NCBI RefSeq assembly: GCF_013122565.1
Contig: NZ_CP053258.1
From: Escherichia coli
Lineage (GTDB): Bacteria; Pseudomonadota; Gammaproteobacteria; Enterobacterales; Enterobacteriaceae
Direction: 5' to 3' (one strand)
DNA: 64,000 bases
The position numbers and the translations under genes were made by a program. The notes under the pieces were generated by a model. It was given only the letters and a program-made list of their open reading frames with translations. It had not been told where the DNA came from and made no database searches. Below, in pieces: positions 16,238 through 57,639 of the stretch (position 1 is its first letter; every line of letters begins with the position of its first letter).

Positions 16238-19200
16238 TTAGAACGTTTTCTTGAAGTTCAGCATCACGCCTTTGTCGCTGATGCCGTCCTCTTTCCAGTT
16301 GTACGCATCCAGGTTCAGTGAGCTTTCTTTGCTGCTGTACTTCACGCCGACGCTTGCCAGGCTGTTGATGCCGCCACCCTTCTGACCGTCATCGACGTTA
16401 AAGTGCTGACTGCCTGCGCCTGCCAGGCTTGCCGTGCGCTGGCTCTTCGCGTAGCTCAGATTCGGCCCGCCTTCCAGCGTGGCGCTAGCGCTCCAGCCGT
16501 CTTTACCTGCGTAATCCAGTTTCAACCCGACGATGCTGTCCACCGCCGTTTCGCTGCCACTGTTCATATTCAGGTTAAAGTCTCCGGCATTGCGCTCCTG
16601 ATAGCCACCTTCCAGTGTGTGACGCAGTTTAACACCCGCATATGGCGTAACCTTCAGTCCTTCGCTCGGTTCGAAAGTCTTCGCCCCTTCGCTGCGGAAC
16701 TCCAGGTACTGCTGCTTCACGTCGGTATCAGCCGTTTTGTTTGTGTTGCTAAATGCAATCGAACGGCTGCTGTCAAGGTTGTGAACGTCATAACGCAATG
16801 CGTTATTCCAGTTCATGCCGTTGTCGAAGGACATCTGATGTTTCAGGCCAAAGAACTGGCTGTAGCCGCCGGTTACGCCGTTGTCGCCCGCTTTCTGCGC
16901 ACCATCGCCATCCAGACGCGCAATACCGTATTCCAGGCTCATGCTCTGGCTTTCGCTCAGGTCGATGGTTTTACGCAATGCCAGCATGTCGTACTCGGTA
17001 TTATTACCTAACTCGGCACGCGGATCGCCTTTCGCCACCACGTTGAACGCCAGACCATTGCCCACTTTCGGCGCGGCATCCGCCAGCATACTAAAGCGGT
17101 TGCTTAACACGCGCGCTTCACGGAACACCGTGGTCGCCAGGCTACCGCTGACCTGTTTCAGGGCGCTGTTCAGTTCGGCGGTGGTGCCAACGTTCAGGCT
17201 GGTATACAGCTCGTTGTTGGTGTAACCCGCATCCAGTGCCTTCGCGACGTCATTTACCGAAGCATCGGTTGCGACATCGGTGTAGGCATTTTTGCTCATG
17301 GTAACGTCAACGTTACCGTTGGCATCGGTGCTGCCTTTGGCGTTCCATACGACCGTAGAGGAAACGATGTTGTCCACACCGCTGATGTTTTCGCCTTTGA
17401 ATACATCGTTAACGACAACGGTGGTATCCGCTGTTCCTGCACTAAACCCGGCATTAACACTCACGTTGTCGCCAATCACCAGGTTATTCGCGCTGAGCGT
17501 ACCGGAACTCCCGTCGCTATTGGTACCGATGGTATAGTTGCTCAGCAGTTGCGGCGCATTTGAATCAGCAGGCGGGGTTGGAACATCACCTTGTGACGGC
17601 GTAGTTGATGCGTCTGGTACGGTGATATCCACAGTACCGTTGTGGTCGTTTTGTGTACCCGTTGTTCCAGGAGCATAAATATCGCATCCGGTATCACACA
17701 GCAGGTTAATTTCACCGTTGTTAATGATGGCTTTCGTTTGCCCACCAAACGCCCAGGAATTATCGGCATAGACATTAATCACACCCGTTTGCGTGTTATT
17801 AATTGTTGTTTCCCGACCATTGCCTTTAATACCAATTAAACCTTCGCCATTGGTTCCATCCTGTTGCCCCTGCTCAGTACCCACATTAATGGTGCCACTG
17901 TTCACCAACTGAACAACATAACTGGTTGTGCCGCCACTGATGCCCACCGCATTATCGCCCTGAACATTAATAACGCCAGCGTTAGCAAAGTTATAACCTC
18001 GTCCTAAATCAACCAACGGAGCCGCAGGGTTAATACCATTGATTACCCCTGTTTCTGTGTTCCAGATCCATTTACCTTTACTGTTCGAGCCAGTACTTTC
18101 GGTTTTGATCGCGCTGTAGCCATTTGTAGCCGTAATGGTTCCACGGTTAACCTGAGATACAGAATCCCCGGTTCTGGTTACATGAATAATCGCGTTTTCA
18201 CCGCCCGTTACCGCATTACCACTATTCGTCAGGGTCGCACCCGCTTCGTTGAAGAACAGGAAACTCCCGTTGATGAGTGATTGCCCATCTTCGGTCACCG
18301 TCATTTCACCGGTATTCACTACGTTCTGTTGATAGCTGTTGCCGGTAATTGAACCGCTGAACTCACCTTCGTTAAAGAAGGAAACCGCACCATTCAACGT
18401 AAGGAGATCTGTTGTCATGCTCCCGGTTTCACGGTTATAGATCGTGGTTTTGCTGTTAATACTGTCAACATCCAGGGTCCCACTATTCTCCAACCCTTGA
18501 GTGACACTCAGTTCGCCATTGATGGTCAGACTGGCATCAGGTTGGTTATATAACCAGCCGTTTGCATCAACATTGCCATTAAGCGTTTCATCTCCGTAGT
18601 TTGCCAGGTTATTAACAACGACAAAACCGTCGGTAGTTGTGGTTTTGCTGATGCTCTCCCCGCTACCAGACAACTCGCTAAGAACATCTTTGTCATCCGG
18701 CGTCACCCCCATATGGGAATCACTTTCATCCATTGGATTACCGAAAAGAGTAATTTTTCCGTAGTTGAGAATGGTACCGGTGCTATCTTTATAAAACGCC
18801 TGACCAATATCAGTATTAATATTAATCACACCATCCTGGTCATTAATGGCCAGACCACCTTGAATTGCCCCCATCGCGAACAACTGGTTATCTTGCTGCT
18901 TCGTCACACCCTCATCGGCGGTGAGATTGATCGTTCCCTGGTTGACAACGGTCCCGCCGCTCATCGCCAGCATACCAAAACCTTCGTTATTAACATTGAT
19001 GGTTCCGGTATTTAACCCACTGGCATCGCCATTTCCGATATCGGTTGACCCTACAACAACGCCACCGGACATAAGATAAGGATGGGGTGGTTGCCAGTAG
19101 GATTTACTAATGATATTGCCATCTTCATCAAGTTCGGGAACAAAACCATCGACATTGATTTCCCCGGCATTTGTCGCCGTGCCTTTAGATGCTGCAGCAG

Positions 19201-22200
19201 CATAGTTTCCCGCGCCTTGCAAATTAATGGTGGCGTCAGATTCATTCACTGTGATGCCGTAATCACTGGCCCACAGCCCGTAGTTGACACCGAAATACCA
19301 TTTCAGGGGGGATTCAGACATCCCGCCTGCGTATGCAGGTGTCGTTACAGAGATCAGATTAATAACCCCACCCGACGCATTCGTAACCTGAGAATTCTGG
19401 CCACGAGCACGCATTGTCCCCCCCCTGGAGAATTCCTCACCGCTAGGTTTGACATTAATAATTCCACTATTAGTGATATGTGCACCATTGTTAGCCGTCA
19501 TTAAATCCTGGCTATCCATTGTGTTAATCACACCTTTGTTTTCAACGCTGGACTGACTGCCAATAGCAGAAATAAGCGCACGTTCAAAGAAGAAAAAGTC
19601 GGTTTCCCTGGCTTTACTGGATATATCCGTTACAGCGTTTTCATCAAATATAACTTTTCCACCGTCCGCCACCGAGACCAACGTAAAGGCACCCAATTCC
19701 TGACGGGTATCCATTGTCGAATGACCACTAATGTTAACGGTATTGTCACCAATAACCGATACGCCATCTATAACATGTGCGGCGCTATCACCACTAATAT
19801 TAATACCGCCATCAATATTAACGGTATTCTTCTCGCCAGAAACAATTATGCCACTCACTAAATTTTCCTGGTGTAGCAGCTCCCCTTGTACGGTGATATC
19901 AACATGGCCACTAATATCTACAGTGTTATTTTTACCACTAATCGTTCCACCTGTTAATGCTGTGATTTGTGCATCAGGGTTATCGCCGAGGATGGAATTA
20001 ACATTGATGCTTCCGTCAACGCTAATATGGCTGTCATTACCCGTCAGACTGAAACCTGTAGCACCCGGCGCATTGCCCTCGCTGTCTGGTTGCTGGAATA
20101 CGTTAATATCGCCGCTTAATTGAACCTGTTCACGGTCACCCGCAATGGATACCCCAGTTCCGTACCGTGAAACATCAATTTCGCCCACGTTACCGAAAAC
20201 TTCATCATCACCATCAATCAGAATCCCCACAGAACCGGAATCCGTGACAACAATTTTGCCTTTATTACTTAACTGCGAGTTATTACCGGCAATATCAATA
20301 CCCGTTGCCCCTCCGCTGACGTAGAGGTCACCTTCCTGGCTAATTGTTGCATTGTGACCGGCAACTTTTGTCCCTACTGCATTCGCACCGTCAACCGTCA
20401 TATCCCCGGCGATATTCATCTCATTGCCATCGCCAGTGATGGTTATACCTGTGGCATTTTCACCCAAAATATTAAGATCATAGGTTGCCAGGGTTATACT
20501 ATTGTTGTCGCCGATAATCTCCATGCCAGTCGTATCGTCTTTAACCAGCATTGAGCCAGCAAGAGAAATACTGCTGCTGTCCCCGGTGATTTTTACACCA
20601 GTACCGCTATTTGTTGTGGTGATGTCTCCCACATTGACAAAGGTAGTATTATCACCATTGATTAACACGCCGTAGGGGTTTCCGTCACTGTCCGCCTGAC
20701 CTACATTGATATCACCAATGTTCATAAAGGTTGTTTGATCGCCATCCAGCAATACACCGATGGAAGTATCATCCACCACAGTAACATTACCCTTATTACT
20801 GACGAGAGTACCTTTACCCTCGGCGTCAATACCGTGTGCGCCACCGCTGACGTATAAATCACCCTGTTGCCTTACAATGGCATCTTCGCCGATAATTTTT
20901 GATCCCGTTGAATTTGCACCATCGACGGTCATGTCGCCTTTGATTTCAATGCGGGCATCATCCCCTGTAATCACACTCCCCGTGCCACCATTCGTGATTT
21001 CGACATCACCAACGGTGTTCAACGTAGTACGATCGCCATTGACAATAACGGCCGTACCACCATCGACATCTGTCTCACCATTATTAGTAATGGTGATATC
21101 GTCACCGGTAAGAATACCTACCACCGAACCTTCACCAATCGCGGTAGTTTGACCGTCGTTGTTCAGGGTGATGTCGTTACCGTCAACGTTTATCACAACG
21201 CCGCCATTCAGCGCGATGTTGCCGCCATGGTCGGTAATAGTGGCATCGTTAATATGGAAATGTTCGCCAGTTGTACCGTCTGCGGTGGTGAGTGACTCTA
21301 TGATTATTTCGATTTTTCCCGCTTCGTCATAGCGCCAGGTGGAGGTTCCGCTCGGATTGACGCCATTGAACGAAGCAGTGTTAGCCGCCTCGTCGACTAA
21401 CCAATCCTTTACGATTGTGGTAGTGCCGCCAGGTCCGGTAAGCGTATAGCTGCCATCGTCATTTTTGGTGTAGGTAAAGGTGGTATCACGTAATTTTAGG
21501 GTCTTCGCGTCCTGATCCCAGGTGACATCGTTTTTATAGACCACTGGATCGTGTTTAACTGGCGTGTCATCGCCACCGTCATCCGGGGTGTCATCGCCGC
21601 CATCATCTGGCGGGACGGGGGTGTCGCCGCCATCATCCGGCGGGACTGGTGTGTCGCCGCCATCATCCGGCGGGACTGGTGTATCACCGCCATCATCCGG
21701 CGGGACTGGTGTGTCGCCGCCATCATCCGGCGGGACTGGTGTGTCACCGCCATCATCCGGCGGGACAGGTGTATCACTGCCATCGTCTGGCGGGACTGGC
21801 GTGTCGCCGCCATCATCCGGCGGGATGGGTGTATCACCGCCATCATCCGGCGGGACGGGTGTATCACCGCCATCATCCGGCGGGACTGGCGTGTCGCCGC
21901 CATCATCCGGCGGGACGGGTGTATCACCACCATCATCCGGCGGGACTGGCGTGTCGCCGCCATCATCCGGCACCGGAGACGAATCGTCATGATGATTATT
22001 ATTATCGTGGAGTGCATATACTGCGACACCTGTGACTGCCGCTGCCAGCCCCACTGCAGCCCAGGGTAATAACTCATTATCTTCAACTGATTTACACTCT
22101 GCCGGCAGCTTTTCTAGCTGTTCTTTACTTAGTGATTTAATATTGGCCGGGCAGCTAATCTTGCTGGATTTACGAGATTCATCCGATGTTTCCGCTATCG

Positions 22201-22273
22201 ACGTATCTGCCGCCCATGTCTGGCTGCTTAACGCCATTGCAACACAGACACTGAGCAATTTTTTCCTTTGCAT
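16238..22273 (-). CDS. ydbA: autotransporter adhesin-like protein, intact 2011-aa form
   Basis: Uninterrupted 2011-codon ORF with signal peptide, N-terminal PDDGGDTPVP tandem repeats, long Gly/Thr/Asn-rich passenger region and C-terminal beta-barrel-like domain ending in F. The K-12 copy is split by IS elements (from memory). Confidence 0.85.
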   Translation of the reverse strand: MQRKKLLSVCVAMALSSQTWAADTSIAETSDESRKSSKISCPANIKSLSKEQLEKLPAECKSVEDNELLPWAAVGLAAAVTGVAVYALHDNNNHHDDSSPVPDDGGDTPVPPDDGGDTPVPPDDGGDTPVPPDDGGDTPVPPDDGGDTPIPPDDGGDTPVPPDDGSDTPVPPDDGGDTPVPPDDGGDTPVPPDDGGDTPVPPDDGGDTPVPPDDGGDTPVPPDDGGDDTPDDGGDDTPVKHDPVVYKNDVTWDQDAKTLKLRDTTFTYTKNDDGSYTLTGPGGTTTIVKDWLVDEAANTASFNGVNPSGTSTWRYDEAGKIEIIIESLTTADGTTGEHFHINDATITDHGGNIALNGGVVINVDGNDITLNNDGQTTAIGEGSVVGILTGDDITITNNGETDVDGGTAVIVNGDRTTLNTVGDVEITNGGTGSVITGDDARIEIKGDMTVDGANSTGSKIIGEDAIVRQQGDLYVSGGAHGIDAEGKGTLVSNKGNVTVVDDTSIGVLLDGDQTTFMNIGDINVGQADSDGNPYGVLINGDNTTFVNVGDITTTNSGTGVKITGDSSSISLAGSMLVKDDTTGMEIIGDNNSITLATYDLNILGENATGITITGDGNEMNIAGDMTVDGANAVGTKVAGHNATISQEGDLYVSGGATGIDIAGNNSQLSNKGKIVVTDSGSVGILIDGDDEVFGNVGEIDVSRYGTGVSIAGDREQVQLSGDINVFQQPDSEGNAPGATGFSLTGNDSHISVDGSINVNSILGDNPDAQITALTGGTISGKNNTVDISGHVDITVQGELLHQENLVSGIIVSGEKNTVNIDGGINISGDSAAHVIDGVSVIGDNTVNISGHSTMDTRQELGAFTLVSVADGGKVIFDENAVTDISSKARETDFFFFERALISAIGSQSSVENKGVINTMDSQDLMTANNGAHITNSGIINVKPSGEEFSRGGTMRARGQNSQVTNASGGVINLISVTTPAYAGGMSESPLKWYFGVNYGLWASDYGITVNESDATINLQGAGNYAAAASKGTATNAGEINVDGFVPELDEDGNIISKSYWQPPHPYLMSGGVVVGSTDIGNGDASGLNTGTINVNNEGFGMLAMSGGTVVNQGTINLTADEGVTKQQDNQLFAMGAIQGGLAINDQDGVININTDIGQAFYKDSTGTILNYGKITLFGNPMDESDSHMGVTPDDKDVLSELSGSGESISKTTTTDGFVVVNNLANYGDETLNGNVDANGWLYNQPDASLTINGELSVTQGLENSGTLDVDSINSKTTIYNRETGSMTTDLLTLNGAVSFFNEGEFSGSITGNSYQQNVVNTGEMTVTEDGQSLINGSFLFFNEAGATLTNSGNAVTGGENAIIHVTRTGDSVSQVNRGTITATNGYSAIKTESTGSNSKGKWIWNTETGVINGINPAAPLVDLGRGYNFANAGVINVQGDNAVGISGGTTSYVVQLVNSGTINVGTEQGQQDGTNGEGLIGIKGNGRETTINNTQTGVINVYADNSWAFGGQTKAIINNGEINLLCDTGCDIYAPGTTGTQNDHNGTVDITVPDASTTPSQGDVPTPPADSNAPQLLSNYTIGTNSDGSSGTLSANNLVIGDNVSVNAGFSAGTADTTVVVNDVFKGENISGVDNIVSSTVVWNAKGSTDANGNVDVTMSKNAYTDVATDASVNDVAKALDAGYTNNELYTSLNVGTTAELNSALKQVSGSLATTVFREARVLSNRFSMLADAAPKVGNGLAFNVVAKGDPRAELGNNTEYDMLALRKTIDLSESQSMSLEYGIARLDGDGAQKAGDNGVTGGYSQFFGLKHQMSFDNGMNWNNALRYDVHNLDSSRSIAFSNTNKTADTDVKQQYLEFRSEGAKTFEPSEGLKVTPYAGVKLRHTLEGGYQERNAGDFNLNMNSGSETAVDSIVGLKLDYAGKDGWSASATLEGGPNLSYAKSQRTASLAGAGSQHFNVDDGQKGGGINSLASVGVKYSSKESSLNLDAYNWKEDGISDKGVMLNFKKTF
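21571..21972 (-). repeat. tandem array of about 13 30-bp repeats inside ydbA (encoding PDDGGDTPVP units)
   Basis: Twelve near-identical head-to-tail 30-bp units (CATCATCCGGCGGGACTGGTGTGTCGCCGC on the plus strand) from 21601 to 21960, plus degenerate flanking units; in frame with ydbA. Confidence 0.95.
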
Positions 22274-49776: not shown

Positions 49777-51390
49777 TCAATGCTTCACAATATACATAGT
49801 CCGACTGTACGCCACATCTTCCGGGTTATTAATGGGATAACCTTTCAGCCACGGCTTGATTAATCGTCCATTGGTATATTGATAAATTGGTGCAATCGGT
49901 GCTTGCTCCATGAGGATTTTTTCTGCCGCATTGTAATCGGCATTACGCGCTTTAACGGTATTTTCCGTTGATGCCTGGGCCAGTACTTTGTCGTATGCCG
50001 GATTGTTAAAGCGTGAAATATTTCCTGAATGCGTTGACGTTAATAATGTCAGGAAAGTGGAGGGTTCATTATAATCCCCTACCCACGAGGCTCGGATAAC
50101 ATCAAAATTGCCGGTGTTACGGCTATCGATATAGGTTTTCCATTCCTGATTTTGCAATTTAACATCTACGCCAAGGTTCTTTTTCCACATCGATGCTACA
50201 GCAATCGCAATTTTTTGATGGTTTTCTGAAGTGTTATACAAAAGCGTCAGCTTCAGCGGTTTTTGCGGACCATAACCAGCTGCGCTCAACAAAGTTTTTG
50301 CCTGCGCATTCAGTTCTTCCTGACTCATTTGTTCAAACGGCGAAGGCTCCGGCGTAAAACCGGCAGTAACATCTGGTGTAAAATGCCACGCTGGCTTTTC
50401 ACCCGTCCCCAACACTTTTTCGGTCATCAGGCGGCGATCTATCGTCATACTTAATGCCAGACGAACGCGCTGATCTGCCGTCGGCCCTTTTTGCGTGTTA
50501 AACGCATAATAATAGGTCCCGAGCTGCGGCGGCGTATAAACCTGCCCCGGAATATCCTTCAACAGCTTCTGATACATATTTTTCGGGAAGGATTCGGTGA
50601 TATCAATATCCCCCGCGAGATAACGCTTAGTGGCTGCGGATTCCTGATTAATTGGCAGGAAGGTCACTTTTTGCAGCACCGTTTTGGCGTTATCCCAATA
50701 ATGGGTATTCGGTACCACGACCAGTTTTTCATTGACTACGCGCTCTTTAAGAACATAAGCGCCATTACCGATCAGATTTCCGGGTTTCGTCCACTCTTTA
50801 CTGCTTTCTACGTTGGCTTTTTGCACCGGGAAGAAGGCAAAGTTAGCGGTTAAATTCACAAACCACGGCAACGGTTTATCAAGCTGGATTTTCAAAGTAT
50901 GGGCATCAACTGCGGTGACGCCAAGCTGGTCAGGCGCGGCTTTACCATCAATAATCGCCTGTGCGTTGTTGATTCCCGCCAGCGCGGCAAACCATGCAAA
51001 TGGCGACAATGTTTTTGGGTCCACCAGACGTTGCCAGCTGTAGACAAAATCTTGCGCCGTTACCGGTGTGCCATCCGCCCATTTTGCGTTATCGCGCAGG
51101 GTAAAAGTCCAGATACGGTTGTCATTACTTTTCCACTGAGTCGCAACGCCGGGGACAATCTCCCCTTTCTCGTTCTGATTCACCAGTCCTTCAAACAGAT
51201 CGCGAATGACCTGAATCTCTGGCAGGCCCACGGCTTTAGCGGGATCCAGCGACGCAGGCTCATCTTTAATGTGGCGCACCAGCTCCTGCTTCTCTGCCAG
51301 TACTGTGCCGCTCGGAACTTCTGCAGCATACGAAAGAGAAATGCTGCTGACCAACAGCGCACAACACGTGACTGAAACAGAGTGCTTCAT
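49777..51390 (-). CDS. mppA: periplasmic murein tripeptide-binding protein
   Basis: Longest ORF is 544 aa; ATG at 51390 (MKHSVSVT...) preceded by AGAGGGA gives 537 aa; signal peptide; OppA-like solute-binding protein. Confidence 0.9.
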   Translation of the reverse strand: MKHSVSVTCCALLVSSISLSYAAEVPSGTVLAEKQELVRHIKDEPASLDPAKAVGLPEIQVIRDLFEGLVNQNEKGEIVPGVATQWKSNDNRIWTFTLRDNAKWADGTPVTAQDFVYSWQRLVDPKTLSPFAWFAALAGINNAQAIIDGKAAPDQLGVTAVDAHTLKIQLDKPLPWFVNLTANFAFFPVQKANVESSKEWTKPGNLIGNGAYVLKERVVNEKLVVVPNTHYWDNAKTVLQKVTFLPINQESAATKRYLAGDIDITESFPKNMYQKLLKDIPGQVYTPPQLGTYYYAFNTQKGPTADQRVRLALSMTIDRRLMTEKVLGTGEKPAWHFTPDVTAGFTPEPSPFEQMSQEELNAQAKTLLSAAGYGPQKPLKLTLLYNTSENHQKIAIAVASMWKKNLGVDVKLQNQEWKTYIDSRNTGNFDVIRASWVGDYNEPSTFLTLLTSTHSGNISRFNNPAYDKVLAQASTENTVKARNADYNAAEKILMEQAPIAPIYQYTNGRLIKPWLKGYPINNPEDVAYSRTMYIVKH

Positions 51391-51572
51391 AAGTTTCCCT
51401 CTAACCGACATTAAAATTGATGCGTAATTATTTGTTTCGCCTTAAAGAAATGCAAACAACTTCCATCAAAAAAGTGATACAAGATCGATAACATAGCGTT
51501 GAAGAAAAGGATTTGATAATCCGCAAAATTTGCACAACACTGCCTGTAATACTTCCTGAACCAGAGACGATC

Positions 51573-53359: not shown

Positions 53360-53863
53360 ATGTCACAAACCGTTCATTTCCAGGGCAACCCGGTTACAGT
53401 CGCCAACTCCATCCCGCAGACGGGTAGCAAAGCGCAGACTTTTACTCTCGTGGCAAAAGATCTGTCTGACGTCACCCTCGGTCAGTTTGCGGGTAAACGC
53501 AAAGTGCTGAACATTTTCCCGAGTATTGATACCGGTGTTTGCGCCGCATCAGTACGTAAGTTTAACCAACTGGCAACCGAGATCGACAACACCGTTGTGC
53601 TGTGTATCTCTGCCGATCTGCCGTTCGCCCAGTCTCGTTTCTGCGGCGCAGAAGGTCTGAACAACGTTATCACCCTCTCCACTTTCCGTAACGCTGAATT
53701 TCTGCAAGCCTACGGTGTGGCAATTGCTGATGGCCCACTGAAAGGTCTGGCAGCGCGTGCCGTTGTGGTTATTGATGAAAATGACAACGTGATTTTCAGC
53801 CAGCTGGTGGATGAAATCACCACCGAGCCGGATTACGAAGCAGCTCTGGCTGTACTGCGCTAA
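53360..53863 (+). CDS. tpx: thiol peroxidase
   Basis: 167-aa ORF starting [20 protein letters not shown] with peroxidatic Cys motif (SIDTGVC). Confidence 0.95.
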
Positions 53864-53871
53864 ACAACTGT

Positions 53872-53910
53872 GCCGTTCACTGAATCACCACCGGTGAACG
53901 GCAGTTTTTT
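53872..53910 (+). terminator. intrinsic terminator of tpx
   Basis: Stem GCCGTTCAC (53872..53880) / GTGAACGGC (53894..53902), then AG + T6 (53905..53910), 9 nt after the tpx stop. Confidence 0.85.
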
Positions 53911-54017
53911 GATCTACCAGTCCCACTATTTTCCAGAGTTCCTGCCACTATTCCCCCTAACCGTTGTGCATTAAGATTGCTCTTTGCCAATATTGGCCCA
54001 GCGGAGTGATGACTATT

Positions 54018-56060
54018 ATGGATGATAAACAAATTACGGTCTGGCTTAAACACAATTGCTGTTCAACGGACATTCCTGCCATTGCCGAGGCACTAACGAA
54101 CCATGCAGAATGGCTTTTAGAGCTAGCGCCAGATCCTATTGAACAAGGTAGTTCATGTTTACCGCCGACAGCTGCAGCCGGTATTTTTCTTGGCGCAGCG
54201 GCGATGGTTCACTGCGGCGAGGCTAGTGGTGCAGAAACCTGGCTCGAAGCAGCCATTACTGATTACCATTTCTTTAATCCAAATGGATATAGTTCATGGA
54301 GAGGCAGTACGCCTGTTTTTACAGCATTATCGCGTTACCCGGCATTAAGAATGGTGTTATTTAACGCCGCTTGCGCAATGGAAGACTGGAATAAAGCATC
54401 CGCTGTTCTTGAATCGCTTTTCCATGCCAGCGATGTCCCGGAAGATAACCCTGTCGCCCCAAATTTTACCCCTTATGCGCTGAAAGCGTTTATCGCGGAT
54501 TACCACCCGTTAGGACCAGCTCATTATGATGAAACCTGGTTGCTGGCAAAACAAGCGTGGTTAATTAATGCGAGCGTTCTGGATGAGCGAACCTGCAATA
54601 CCTGGAAGCAATATACCCGCCACTTGCGCCATTTGATCCACAATGCACAGTTTGCCGATGCGCTCTCTTTTGTACGCAGTAAAAAAGAACCGTTAAATCA
54701 TATCCATACCTACTCAGACTTTTATCTGTATGCGATTGGTTTATTTTCTTATACTGGTCAGCTAAATGAAGCGCTGACCTGGATAAAACAGTTAATCCAC
54801 AACAATGATGGTCATTTCTGTGATCTTTTCGTTTCAACTGGCAAAGAGCGCCGAATAAAGCCTGAACTTAGTACCTTGCTGAATAATCTCTTGCACAGCG
54901 CAGAGTTTCAGGCGTTGCAGGATAAATATCTCACCGTCGGACATGATGTTGTGCATTCTGGTCCCTTCATGTCAGTTTATGAAAAGGTTCTTGGCGGAAA
55001 GTCCCGAAAGCGCTGCGCGATTAGTCGAAAATTAATCTCGCCCGGCGAAGCGGTTTATGAATATCGTCAGCTGGATAGTGTGGCATATATTGCAGCGAAA
55101 GCGGCCTTTCAGGCATCTGCGCTAAATAATATCGCCCTCCGGCATACAAATGATAGTTATCAGTGGCAGGATTTTGCCGCCCAATGGCCTCGTCGGGGTG
55201 CGCTTTCTCACCCGGATATTGCCCGTTATATGTTTGAGCGCCAGAAAGGGAAATGTTTTGATGCCGCAGAGTTTATTCAACTGATTGCCGAACCGTTTGT
55301 CTTTCCGATGCGTTTCAGATGGGTTGCCGGGTTGTCCTTTGAATTACATCAGTACCCGGATGCCTATTTCGTAAATGACAATATGGCGGGTGAATTTGTT
55401 AATCTCTGCTGGATGGCTATAAAATGCGGACATGCTGGCGACATTTTTAAACAACTGGCGAAGGAGTCGCATGACGTTGCCGACCCTATTTACGCTATGC
55501 TCGCCACGTTTGACCGCGCTGATTGCCGCAGCGCTGCCGCCGCGCACTTTGGACGACCGGAGCTTGCGGAAATAATGGCGCTGGCTTTCAGTTCGAGGTT
55601 ATCGCTCGACAGCGTCCTTACCATCGCTGAGTTTGGTAAAAATCAGCCGCGCTTTTCACATGCGTTGGCAACGGCCCTCCTGCGTTACAACCTGCACATC
55701 TACTCAAACTATATGCCGCAGGTTAACTGGTTCCTTCAGGGGCTGGAACACTATGCTTTGGCAAAAGGCGGTCAACTTTTAAATTTCTTTGTGCATATTC
55801 CAGAACAAATTCCCGTTCTGGCGACCATGCTGGAACATGGCGTATTAGTGCGTGGGATCGGTGAAGGTGCCTATGATGGTTATGATAATTCAGCAAATTC
55901 ATTTCATCATGCCGCCGTGATGCACTGCCTCACGCACGCGCCGGAAAAAGTTCGCTACTGGATGGAAACACCCTGGATTCAGAACTATTTAGTGAATGCG
56001 CCGCTGCGTCAAACGGCGCGCCATGTGGAAGCCTGGCATAAAAAGTTTGGCATCAAATGA
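54018..56060 (+). CDS. uncharacterized ~680-aa protein with no recognisable motif, encoded on an insertion between tpx and tyrR
   Basis: Uninterrupted ORF (longest form from TTG 53964, 698 codons); ATG at 54018 sits about 7 nt after a GGAGTGAT Shine-Dalgarno-like sequence (alternative ATG at 54009). No Walker A, HTH, signal peptide or nuclease motif seen; rare codons CGA and ATA are used; bounded by the tpx terminator and an inverted repeat at the tyrR 3' end. Confidence 0.7.
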   Translation: MDDKQITVWLKHNCCSTDIPAIAEALTNHAEWLLELAPDPIEQGSSCLPPTAAAGIFLGAAAMVHCGEASGAETWLEAAITDYHFFNPNGYSSWRGSTPVFTALSRYPALRMVLFNAACAMEDWNKASAVLESLFHASDVPEDNPVAPNFTPYALKAFIADYHPLGPAHYDETWLLAKQAWLINASVLDERTCNTWKQYTRHLRHLIHNAQFADALSFVRSKKEPLNHIHTYSDFYLYAIGLFSYTGQLNEALTWIKQLIHNNDGHFCDLFVSTGKERRIKPELSTLLNNLLHSAEFQALQDKYLTVGHDVVHSGPFMSVYEKVLGGKSRKRCAISRKLISPGEAVYEYRQLDSVAYIAAKAAFQASALNNIALRHTNDSYQWQDFAAQWPRRGALSHPDIARYMFERQKGKCFDAAEFIQLIAEPFVFPMRFRWVAGLSFELHQYPDAYFVNDNMAGEFVNLCWMAIKCGHAGDIFKQLAKESHDVADPIYAMLATFDRADCRSAAAAHFGRPELAEIMALAFSSRLSLDSVLTIAEFGKNQPRFSHALATALLRYNLHIYSNYMPQVNWFLQGLEHYALAKGGQLLNFFVHIPEQIPVLATMLEHGVLVRGIGEGAYDGYDNSANSFHHAAVMHCLTHAPEKVRYWMETPWIQNYLVNAPLRQTARHVEAWHKKFGIK

Positions 56061-56068
56061 ACGTTGCC

Positions 56069-56089
56069 GCTGCGCCTGAACGGCGCAGC
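56069..56089. terminator. inverted repeat between the inserted ORF and the tyrR 3' end
   Basis: 8-bp stem GCTGCGCC / GGCGCAGC with loop TGAAC, between the ORF stop (56060) and the tyrR stop (56098); no U-run, so terminator function is uncertain. Confidence 0.4.
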
Positions 56090-56097
56090 CAGCACAA

Positions 56098-57639
56098 TCA
56101 CTCTTCGCTTTTCTTCTGGTTTAAGCCATATTCCCGCAACTTATTGGCAATCGCGGTATGTGAAACACCGAGACGTTTTGCCAGTTTGCGCGTGCTGGGA
56201 TAATTGCGATAAAGCTGAGTTAATACCGAGCGTTCAAAACGGCTGGTAATTTCGTCCAGCGAACCTTCCATCGCATCTTCGCCCACGGCTACCGTTGCGG
56301 CGTCATAATCAGGCAACAAAATATCCTGAGGACGCAGCTCATAACCGTCCAGTTGTGTCAGTGCGCGATAGATAGCGTTCTTTAACTGCCGCACATTTCC
56401 CGGCCACGCATAACGCGTAAGTACAGTATTCAGGTCAGCGGCCAGTTTCGGACGCGGCACGCCCTGCTCGTCGGCAAAGCGGGCGACGAACAGCTCAGTT
56501 AACGGCATGATGTCCTGCGGACAGTCACGTAGCGGTGGCAGATTGAGCGTCAACACGTTCAGACGATAATAGAGATCTTCACGGAACATGCCTTTTTGCA
56601 CCAGTTCGACCAGATTTTTCTGCGTAGCGCAAATCACCCGCACATCGACATGCACCTCATGGTCTTCGCCAACCCGACGGAAAGTGCCATCATTAAGGAA
56701 ACGCAGTAATTTCGCCTGCATCCGTGGTGACATTTCCCCTATTTCATCCAACAGCACCGAACCACCGTTCGCCTGCTCAAAGAATCCTTTCTTCCCTTCC
56801 GGAGCATGACCAAACAGTTCACTCTCGACCGCATCTTCCGGTATAGACGCACAGTTCAGCGCCAGGTAAGGTTTGCCCGCTCTGGGGCTTGCCTGATGGC
56901 AGGCGTAGGCAAAGAGATCTTTACCTGTACCTGTGTCACCCGTAATCAGCAGCGGCGCGCTTAGCATCGCCAGTTTCTGCGCCTGTTCGACAACGTGCTT
57001 CATTTTCGGGCTGACGGCGACAATTTGACTGAAGGCGCTGACGTCCTGGGCGGCGACATTTTGCAACTGGCGGCCCATACGAATCGTTGATCGCAACATC
57101 ACCACCGCACCGGTCAGGACGTGTTGAGCATTTTCATCCTGAAGATAAACAGGCGTAATCTCCATCAGGAAATTCTGCCCATTAATAACGACATGCTCGT
57201 TATGCGAATCTTGCGGTTCGCTTTCCAGCCAACGTAAAAAATTAAAGCCGTTAATCAATTGTGCGGCGGTATGGTTGCGCAGGCGATCCAATTTTTGCCC
57301 AAAAAGCTGACAGCTCGCCGGGTTCGCCATATCCACTTTGCTTTTCATATCGACAGAGAGCACAGGTTCGGGCAACGCCTCCAGTAACGCGCTCAACGCC
57401 AGATGCTCACGTTCGGAAGGCATCCACGGGACAGTACGCACATCGGTAACACCTGCAATACGGCGTATTTCGGCCATCAGACTGCTGAAACTCTCAAACT
57501 CCAGTTCAGCAAAATTGAGGTAGATTCGCCCAATGGGATCAATCTCAATACCGCGTAAATCAATGCCTCTTAGCACGAGTAGATCGAGTAATTCGCGGGT
57601 CAGACCGAGTCGGTCTTCACAAAAGACTTCCAGACGCAT
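56098..57639 (-). CDS. tyrR: transcriptional regulator TyrR (sigma-54 activator family)
   Basis: Longest ORF starts at TTG 57666; ATG at 57639 (MRLEVFCEDRLGLTREL...) gives 513 aa; AAA+ motif GDTGTGKD and C-terminal HTH. Confidence 0.95.
   Translation of the reverse strand: MRLEVFCEDRLGLTRELLDLLVLRGIDLRGIEIDPIGRIYLNFAELEFESFSSLMAEIRRIAGVTDVRTVPWMPSEREHLALSALLEALPEPVLSVDMKSKVDMANPASCQLFGQKLDRLRNHTAAQLINGFNFLRWLESEPQDSHNEHVVINGQNFLMEITPVYLQDENAQHVLTGAVVMLRSTIRMGRQLQNVAAQDVSAFSQIVAVSPKMKHVVEQAQKLAMLSAPLLITGDTGTGKDLFAYACHQASPRAGKPYLALNCASIPEDAVESELFGHAPEGKKGFFEQANGGSVLLDEIGEMSPRMQAKLLRFLNDGTFRRVGEDHEVHVDVRVICATQKNLVELVQKGMFREDLYYRLNVLTLNLPPLRDCPQDIMPLTELFVARFADEQGVPRPKLAADLNTVLTRYAWPGNVRQLKNAIYRALTQLDGYELRPQDILLPDYDAATVAVGEDAMEGSLDEITSRFERSVLTQLYRNYPSTRKLAKRLGVSHTAIANKLREYGLNQKKSEE

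Follow-up and report, generated by a model that had tools for sequence, protein, structure and literature searches.

What does a gene do that stands alone between two core-genome neighbors and that no curated family describes? The question arises at the tpx-tyrR site of a 64,000-nucleotide stretch of Escherichia coli DNA (contig NZ_CP053258.1, assembly GCF_013122565.1), which we analyzed as a whole and call the window. In E. coli K-12, tpx and tyrR are convergent and separated by 43 bp, in line with the few tens of bp given in the initial annotation of the window, which had been made from the sequence alone. In the window, BLAST of the flanks against K-12 revealed a segment of 2242 bp in place of 54 bp of unrelated K-12 sequence, and this segment carries one open reading frame (ORF). 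We tentatively propose that the ORF product is a stand-alone, or "orphan", immunity protein, which may neutralize, by binding it, an interbacterial toxin that acts in the cytoplasm.

A single gene in place of the tpx-tyrR spacer

The locus comprises the following features (positions are those of the window).

53360..53863, + strand: tpx (ORF list)
54018..56060, + strand: ORF of 680 amino acids, annotated "hypothetical protein" (WP_171459435.1 / QJU24355.1; ORF list, homologues, ratio of non-synonymous to synonymous substitution rates (dN/dS), AlphaFold2)
53858..56099, no strand assigned: segment without K-12-type counterpart (BLAST of the flanks and survey of E. coli genomes)
stop codon ending at 56098, - strand: tyrR (ORF list)

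Homology to K-12 stops at position 53857 and restarts at 56100. The edges of the segment take in the last codons of tpx, which ends in ..VLR* in the window and in ..VLKA* in K-12, and the stop codon of tyrR (TGA in the window, TAA in K-12). The extent of the ORF is the one first annotated: it starts either at ATG 54018, giving 680 amino acids, or at TTG 53964, giving 698 codons. The ATG fits the N-termini of all homologues in the alignment. BLAST and the ORF list also bear out the earlier description of a single-gene segment absent from K-12, as no integrase, transposase or second gene was found among the ORFs of 53858..56099. The two junctions resemble neither each other nor the K-12 spacer, as judged by reading the sequence and by three-way alignment, and the features expected of mobile-element cargo (a transposase or integrase, terminal repeats, a target-site duplication) were not seen, no dedicated repeat search having been run. 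A literature search on the tpx-tyrR site returned nothing relevant.

A rare family found across phyla

Searched as a single sequence, the protein has no match in Pfam, NCBIfam, PADLOC or PHROGs. The best Pfam match, TPR_19, has an E-value of 5.8 and is below significance, and none of the families in the PADLOC-DB 2.0 defense models matched at E <= 1. A word-indexed search of 5.8 billion proteins retrieved eight clusters that align over the full length at 49-90% identity; they come from E. coli, Salmonella enterica, and the assemblies of public sequencing runs and metagenomes. Repeating this search with a 55-sequence profile added nothing. More distant relatives were recovered by searching 1.84 billion cluster representatives exhaustively with a profile, which gave 120 related clusters at E <= 1e-3, of which 88 at 1e-10. 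Conservation extends over the full length of the protein, down to 24% identity across phyla, and the relatives are found in Salmonella (in many serovars), other enterobacteria, rhizobia, Planctomycetes, Bacteroidota, Listeria, and spirochaetes.

The family, though real, is very rare. A narrow-alignment scan of 100,044 species-representative genomes found only two matches, both at rhizobial-type loci of alphaproteobacteria, and a tblastn search of 72,556 plasmids found the gene in one, pBSY16_2 of Sinorhizobium sp. RAC02. It was not found in 50,697 phage genomes, nor in IMG/VR. Its members come in three forms: proteins of ~680-720 amino acids, proteins of ~480-540 amino acids lacking the first ~190 residues (their profile matches begin near residue 190), and two clusters with N-terminal ankyrin repeats. 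When Pfam was run on 55 family members, Ank_2 was found in two of them and no Imm, Tox or effector domain in any; 14 atypical or long members gave nothing informative. Hence, the earlier statement that the protein matches no family stands as far as curated libraries go, and the Pfam and other profile searches brought up no characterized family; it does not stand entirely, since the family profile picks up TPR/PPR-like repeats at residues 196-264. A reading of the N-terminus agrees with the initial annotation that there is no signal peptide. A relation to Legionella RidL came up when a nine-sequence profile was compared with PDB sequences, at an E-value of only ~0.1, and was treated as noise.

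Some relatives lie among immunity genes

To characterize the neighborhoods of the relatives, we used a sample of 19 independent contexts. Established families of immunity to interbacterial toxins (TsiV/DUF3396, Tli4_C, SMI1/KNR4, DUF1963, and ankyrin) are present in four of them, a raw, uncontrolled count. The initial annotation had left the function entirely unassigned; these neighborhoods point to immunity against interbacterial toxins.

TsiV (DUF3396, PF11876) is an experimentally shown type VI secretion system (T6SS) immunity family, which protects against TseV VRR-Nuc effectors within TseV/TsiV effector/immunity pairs (PMC9635880). It is a same-strand neighbor of family members in three independent lineages. 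In Salmonella (loci L001-L005), the family gene has a TsiV/DUF3396 gene 2.4 kb upstream of it, with the same orientation and amid IS1 and DDE remnants; this island is found on hundreds of contigs and carries a DUF1266-DUF4034 operon on the opposite strand. In an environmental proteobacterium (L017), the family gene begins 2 nucleotides past the last of four TsiV genes, in an array that includes, in addition, a Tox-PAAR-like gene and two orphan toxin tips. Downstream of hrpA, an enterobacterial island (L010, L011, L015) has a Tli4_C gene 65 bp downstream of the family gene, followed further on by an ankyrin-repeat protein and three tandem paralogues of ~280 amino acids, and it shares one gene of 140 amino acids with the Salmonella island. 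In L010, the Tli4_C gene is fragmented and the family gene is intact. In plasmid pBSY16_2, the family gene is surrounded by an array of ~25 kb with two SMI1/KNR4 (SUKH), two DUF1963, one DUF3396 and two YcxB genes and many hypotheticals; DUF1963 is a family that we take to be immunity-associated. This array fits the "heterogeneous polyimmunity locus" described previously (PMC3482391).

In loci L006-L009, the family itself is present as tandem paralogues, a split P0003-like copy being immediately followed by P0008 with ~58% mutual identity. Two genes upstream in L006 were considered as functional partners and ruled out, as they are the halves of this second, split copy. Where the gene stands alone, it lies for example after minCDE (L029), between malM and ubiC, or beside metal-resistance, PEPCK, SDR or ABC-transporter genes, and the five contexts from a metagenome scan are all of this type. 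The insertion site differs in each lineage.

The same loci contain other genes worth recording. In L017 (782..6999), the toxin tips are 205 and 228 amino acids long, both begin with 29 residues that match the end of the PAAR-like ORF, and each is followed by a TsiV gene, which makes this a textbook orphan-cassette array; the tips have no Pfam match to VRR-Nuc. The ~280-residue paralogues of the hrpA island (L010, 13321..15971; L015, 10148..12287) are unannotated, have 28-35% mutual identity, with a faint RHS_repeat match on one, and are probably another unnamed immunity family. In Salmonella enterica, the operon on the minus strand of L001 (13114..17878) has four genes, encoding proteins of 400, 238 (DUF1266), 703 (DUF4034) and 239 amino acids. 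Its DUF4034 protein has counterparts at 62-84% identity in Klebsiella, Citrobacter, Kluyvera, Leminorella and Serratia and at 37% in Yersinia, and our literature search found no paper that mentions DUF4034. A cluster of five genes, for an AAA ATPase and for DUF5682, DUF4132, VWA and SWIM zinc finger proteins, borders the polyimmunity array of pBSY16_2 (L034, 1543..12031; 59.5-70 kb of the plasmid). In L032, an AAA_5 ATPase gene stops 8 nucleotides before the family gene. In L018 (4845..9142) and L019, the ankyrin-fused member comes after a 675-residue RCC1/WD40 beta-propeller protein, on a contig of assembly GCA_040777305.1, in which contig numbers run very high, and the combination of ankyrin and RCC1 repeats hints at a eukaryote-associated bacterium.

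A helical solenoid with a conserved C-terminal domain

AlphaFold2, run with 55 sequences, produced a confident model (pLDDT 90.0, pTM 0.91); an earlier model from nine sequences, with a pLDDT of 59.7, was not used. The protein is predicted to be an all-helical solenoid except for three short hairpin strands (317-324, 345-351, and 356-360). Its parts are as follows.

54018..54932, + strand: residues 1-305, N-terminal helical-repeat region, the least conserved part (model secondary structure)
54603..54809, + strand: residues 196-264, TPR/PPR-like repeats (sequence profile)
54966..55097, + strand: residues 317-360, beta-hairpin module with the block GGKxRKRCAxSxxxIxPG, which holds C333 and G343 (model)
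55098..56057, + strand: residues 361-680, family-defining C-terminal all-helical domain with the blocks DPIYAMLATF and RYNLHxYSNYxPQVxW

The mean pairwise identity is 0.58 for residues 1-190, 0.45 for 191-305, and 0.69 for 401-680. Residues 1-305 are missing in the members of ~500 amino acids and swapped for ankyrin repeats in two members (Ank_2 in 2 of 55). The tandem helix-turn-helix repeats that characterize the TPR-like alpha-solenoid superfamily are present, by profile and structure, only at residues ~196-264; only ~110-140 residues align with TPR/PPR proteins, and outside these the protein departs from a canonical TPR array. A Foldseek search of AFDB50 with the full-length model retrieved 24 proteins, all of them uncharacterized family members, including those of Rhizobium, Azorhizobium, Pigmentiphaga, Saltatorellus (Planctomycetes), Dyadobacter, Rikenella, Desulfovibrio, Listeria, and Leptospira. 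Beyond them, it returned only TPR proteins at TM-scores below 0.2. Hence, going by the predicted model, the C-terminal domain has no detectable structural relative outside the family.

The conserved positions are mostly glycines, prolines and aromatic residues, together with C333, D489 and R545. The full-length subfamily shows no variation at these three, and family-wide C333 is conserved at 87-93%. H560 is outside the invariant or nearly invariant set of that subfamily. A catalytic Cys-His pair formed by C333 and H560 was set aside because H560 is only 82-89% conserved. Across the family alignment we found no conserved set of catalytic-looking residues. The His/Cys motifs pointed out in the initial annotation are not conserved either: HNCCSTD, near the N-terminus, varies even among E. 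coli alleles and is therefore not a functional motif.

Distribution and selection in E. coli

We then assessed how frequent the segment is in the species, using 5426 complete E. coli genomes and a query spanning tpx, the ORF, and tyrR, with full-length matches defined as those covering at least 80% of the query. The flanks were matched in 5415 genomes. The full-length segment occupies the tpx-tyrR site in 30 genomes (~0.6%) and a partial one, disrupted by an insertion sequence (IS), in two more, resulting in 32 copies; the listed segment-free genomes have the K-12-type arrangement of 1213 bp. In other words, the gene is not unique to the strain of the window. Carriers include pathogenic and commensal E. 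coli, and the gene is annotated as "hypothetical protein" in every one. The copies form two allele groups, 16 at 95-99% identity to the window and 16 at 90-95%. Ten of the 32 are seemingly disrupted: six are annotated as two ORFs, among them that of strain 2014C-3011, which has a +1 frameshift in an A-run at nucleotide 266, and four carry IS600, which was inserted into the gene secondarily. The remaining 22 copies, among them that of the window, are intact across 2043 nucleotides.

Among intact E. coli alleles, dN/dS is 0.28-0.46, at synonymous divergences (dS) of 0.04-0.15; for comparison, it is 0.007-0.049 in the flanking tyrR. The ORF is thus under purifying selection, much weaker than that on its neighbors. 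Because it has full-length homologues at 49-90% identity and such dN/dS values, it is not a chance reading frame, and the same data speak against a degraded remnant lacking conservation, which the initial annotation had named as a way in which its candidate could fail.

The initial annotation had also suspected horizontal acquisition from rare codons, and two further observations support this. The ORF has a GC content of 47.9%, and its GC content at third codon positions is 46.5%, compared with 52-61% in six neighboring genes. Furthermore, the 3' end of tyrR beside the segment is divergent:

56100..56250, - strand: divergent 3' tract of tyrR, a recombination scar (comparison with K-12, five carriers)

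In all five carriers checked, these first ~150 bp have 7-10 mismatches relative to K-12 (5-7%). Deeper into tyrR, the mismatches drop to 0-2 in three carriers and stay high in two. Such mosaic divergence is the expected leftover of import from a diverged donor, hence the segment spread by homologous recombination of its flanks. This supports a horizontal arrival without a mobile element and suggests a donor outside mainstream E. coli. The locus offers a clean case of a single accessory gene that homologous recombination alone has moved through an intergenic site of the core genome. In strains 24A16CRGN010 and EC42405 (the area of loci L023-L026), the divergent tract of tyrR exceeds 1.4 kb, and the dS of tyrR between carriers reaches 0.21.

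A candidate orphan immunity protein

What could such a protein do? Sequence and context suggest an immunity function, a binding mechanism, and a cytoplasmic site of action. Rivals would inject a toxin through a type VI or another polymorphic-toxin system, and the product of the ORF, a cytoplasmic and non-enzymatic helical solenoid, would bind the incoming toxin stoichiometrically and block the active site or keep the toxin from its target. The core of the binding would fall to the conserved C-terminal domain, and the N-terminal repeats, which are exchangeable (TPR-like here, ankyrin in some relatives), would provide an accessory surface for binding or stabilization. Since it is other cells that encode the cognate toxin, the protein would work without a partner gene. 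The persistence of the ORF as a lone gene, in turn, means that it is not itself an intracellular toxin.

Several lines of evidence suggest this role. The family gene lies among immunity genes in four independent lineages, and polyimmunity loci are arrays of such genes (PMC3482391). Tandem paralogues, a hallmark of immunity genes (PMC3482391), are found in L006-L009, in the manner of homogeneous polyimmunity. The predicted all-alpha repeat fold resembles Imm-HEAT and Imm-Ank, two repeat-type immunity classes (PMC3482391), and the two members in which ankyrin takes the place of the N-terminal repeats point the same way, as does the lack of an invariant catalytic-type residue set in the alignment. 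The gene also behaves as an accessory gene, with a patchy spread, a dN/dS of ~0.3, and 10 of 32 copies seemingly disrupted. The family is unnamed and, these data suggest, new, with a putative function of a known kind, namely toxin immunity.

Other observations weigh against this reading. Only four of the 19 contexts hold recognized immunity genes; in 14, including that of E. coli, the gene is alone amid unrelated, mostly housekeeping genes. Accessory genes cluster in variable regions, so that some of the co-location could be passive. No complete toxin gene lies directly upstream in any of the 19 contexts, and the window has no toxin gene, so that the arrangement expected of an immunity gene, right behind the gene of its cognate toxin and on one transcript with it, is absent. 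This lowers the claim without excluding it, since orphan immunity genes need no such neighbor. Moreover, 680 amino acids is much above the typical size of immunity proteins, the C-terminal domain is unusually conserved for an arms-race surface, and promoter prediction gave no strong sigma-70 site in the stretch from the tpx terminator to the start codon.

Comparison with known systems places the protein near several of them and within no named family. It would work most nearly as Imm-HEAT and Imm-Ank proteins do, which have in common with it all-alpha repeats, a cytoplasmic location (here presumed), heterogeneous polyimmunity loci, a sporadic pan-bacterial spread, and ankyrin variants (PMC3482391). 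In contrast to them, the family matches none of the Pfam Imm families by sequence or profile, its member in the window has ~680 amino acids and a conserved C-terminal domain of ~320 amino acids without an outside structural match, and no adjoining cognate toxin was found. TsiV differs in length and fold, and homology to TsiV/DUF3396 was ruled out: there is no Pfam match, and hhalign of the family against the TsiV of L017 gave a probability of 0.2%. DUF4034 (PF13226, Enterobacteriaceae, ~703 amino acids) is similar in length, one such gene shares the Salmonella island with the family gene, and two AFDB relatives are labeled "DUF4034 domain-containing" in UniProt. Membership was nevertheless rejected, as PF13226 matches neither the window protein nor the 55 members, a comparison with a single DUF4034 sequence did not support homology, and a profile-profile comparison of the family with 14 DUF4034 proteins gave a probability of 0.25%. 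A parallel in population pattern is with the orphan immunity genes and acquired interbacterial defense (AID) clusters of gut Bacteroidales, which are toxin-less, horizontally spread, fast-evolving, and strain-variable (bioRxiv 10.1101/471110; 10.1101/2025.05.03.651265). AID clusters, however, comprise many genes on mobile elements with recombinases, whereas the window has one gene at a core intergenic site, moved by homologous recombination and without a mobility gene; and protection was demonstrated for AID clusters, whereas for the window gene we infer immunity from sequence and context.

If the protein is an orphan immunity protein, it represents an unnamed family of large immunity proteins with a C-terminal fold that matches nothing known, adds to the catalogue from which resistance in gut bacterial competition can be predicted, and implies the existence of a further, cognate toxin. 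If it is not, the family is still a well-folded, phylum-spanning orphan domain.

Alternative explanations

The protein could have a role outside bacterial conflict, as a helical-repeat scaffold, adaptor, or chaperone-like factor whose presence in immunity arrays reflects passive co-location. Folds of the TPR type are typical of scaffolds, conservation of the C-terminal domain is high, and most contexts (14/19) are those of a lone gene among housekeeping genes. Such a role nevertheless seems rather unlikely for a gene with an extremely sporadic spread even within one species (0.6% of E. coli), about a third of whose E. coli copies are seemingly disrupted, which has a different insertion site per lineage, and which directly adjoins immunity genes in two lineages (2 nucleotides after TsiV in L017, 65 nucleotides before Tli4_C in L015). 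We give somewhat less credence to a new type of stand-alone conflict module, in which a pan-bacterial domain of ~320 residues and of unseen fold, equipped with interchangeable TPR or ankyrin sensor repeats, would let a single protein detect and counter an invading toxin, a phage component, or another foreign factor by an undescribed mechanism. A single-gene anti-phage or abortive-infection protein, whose repeats would sense a phage component and whose C-terminal domain would respond, shares this architecture of exchangeable TPR-like or ankyrin repeats on a conserved domain and would suit the patchy, horizontal spread. A gene for the type I restriction protein HsdR lies ~5 kb from one relative, and an AbiEii/DUF6088 pair is near one metagenomic relative, at a locus that the scan leaves unspecified. 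We regard this as improbable, though, as neither a PADLOC match at E <= 1 nor a recognizable effector domain (nuclease, NADase, protease, pore) nor invariant catalytic residues were found, as the family was not found in the 50,697 phage genomes or IMG/VR, and as the recognizable neighbors are toxin-immunity genes rather than defense systems.

The position within T6SS effector-immunity arrays could also be that of a secreted cargo effector, or of an effector adaptor or chaperone, stranded in E. coli without a secretion system. The ~680 residues are nearer the size of an effector than that of an immunity protein, and in L015 the family gene is directly upstream of Tli4_C, in the order effector then immunity. 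However, no PAAR, VgrG, Hcp, Rhs, MIX or other trafficking or toxin domain was found, the family gene is intact beside the fragmented Tli4_C of L010 and in many genomes without an adjoining immunity gene, purifying selection acts on it in E. coli, where it stands alone, and the family also occurs in Listeria, a Gram-positive genus that, to our knowledge, has no T6SS. Tle4 lipases, the partners of Tli4, have an alpha/beta-hydrolase fold with a GxSxG catalytic serine; the fold predicted here is all-helical, and this, together with the absence of a hydrolase Pfam match, led us to rule out a Tle4-type lipase. An effector role thus appears very improbable. Least probable in our view is a decaying remnant without function in E. 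coli. It would account for the 10 seemingly disrupted copies among 32, for a dN/dS of ~0.3 that is far above that of the flanking genes, and for the lack of a strong predicted promoter, but it is hard to reconcile with 22 copies, that of the window included, intact over 2043 nucleotides, with a dN/dS clearly below 1 at dS up to 0.15, and with full-length conservation across phyla down to 24% identity.

Other features of the window

Two hairpins flank the ORF.

53871..53909, + strand: tpx intrinsic terminator with a 12-bp stem, a 9-nucleotide loop, and a T6 tail (RNA fold)
56063..56093, no strand assigned: GC-rich hairpin that separates the stop codons of the ORF and tyrR and lacks a U-tract on both strands (RNA fold)

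The terminator had been noticed in the initial annotation, and folding agrees with it: the stem at 53871..53903 has a free energy of -19.9 kcal/mol (z = -4.45), and none of 200 shuffled sequences is equally stable. A consensus terminator scan skipped this hairpin because its loop exceeds 8 nucleotides. The second hairpin has -19.7 kcal/mol on the + strand and -24.5 kcal/mol on the - strand.

Far from the segment, positions 16238..22273 of the minus strand hold an intact ORF of 2010 amino acids for an autotransporter adhesin, which matches NCBIfam auto_BigA with 2049 bits, below the curated cut-off of 3400. Its K-12 counterpart is presumably ydbA, a pseudogene interrupted by an IS, so the strain of the window may, judging from the sequence, keep a functional ydbA counterpart. 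Closer to tpx, K-12 homology on the left side begins only at 51448, and a gene for an OppA/MppA-like substrate-binding protein (49777..51411, - strand) directly adjoins mpaA, at a position where K-12 has a pseudogene fragment, ycjY, and pgrR. The region ~49777..51450 is thus a second presence/absence difference near the tpx-tyrR segment.

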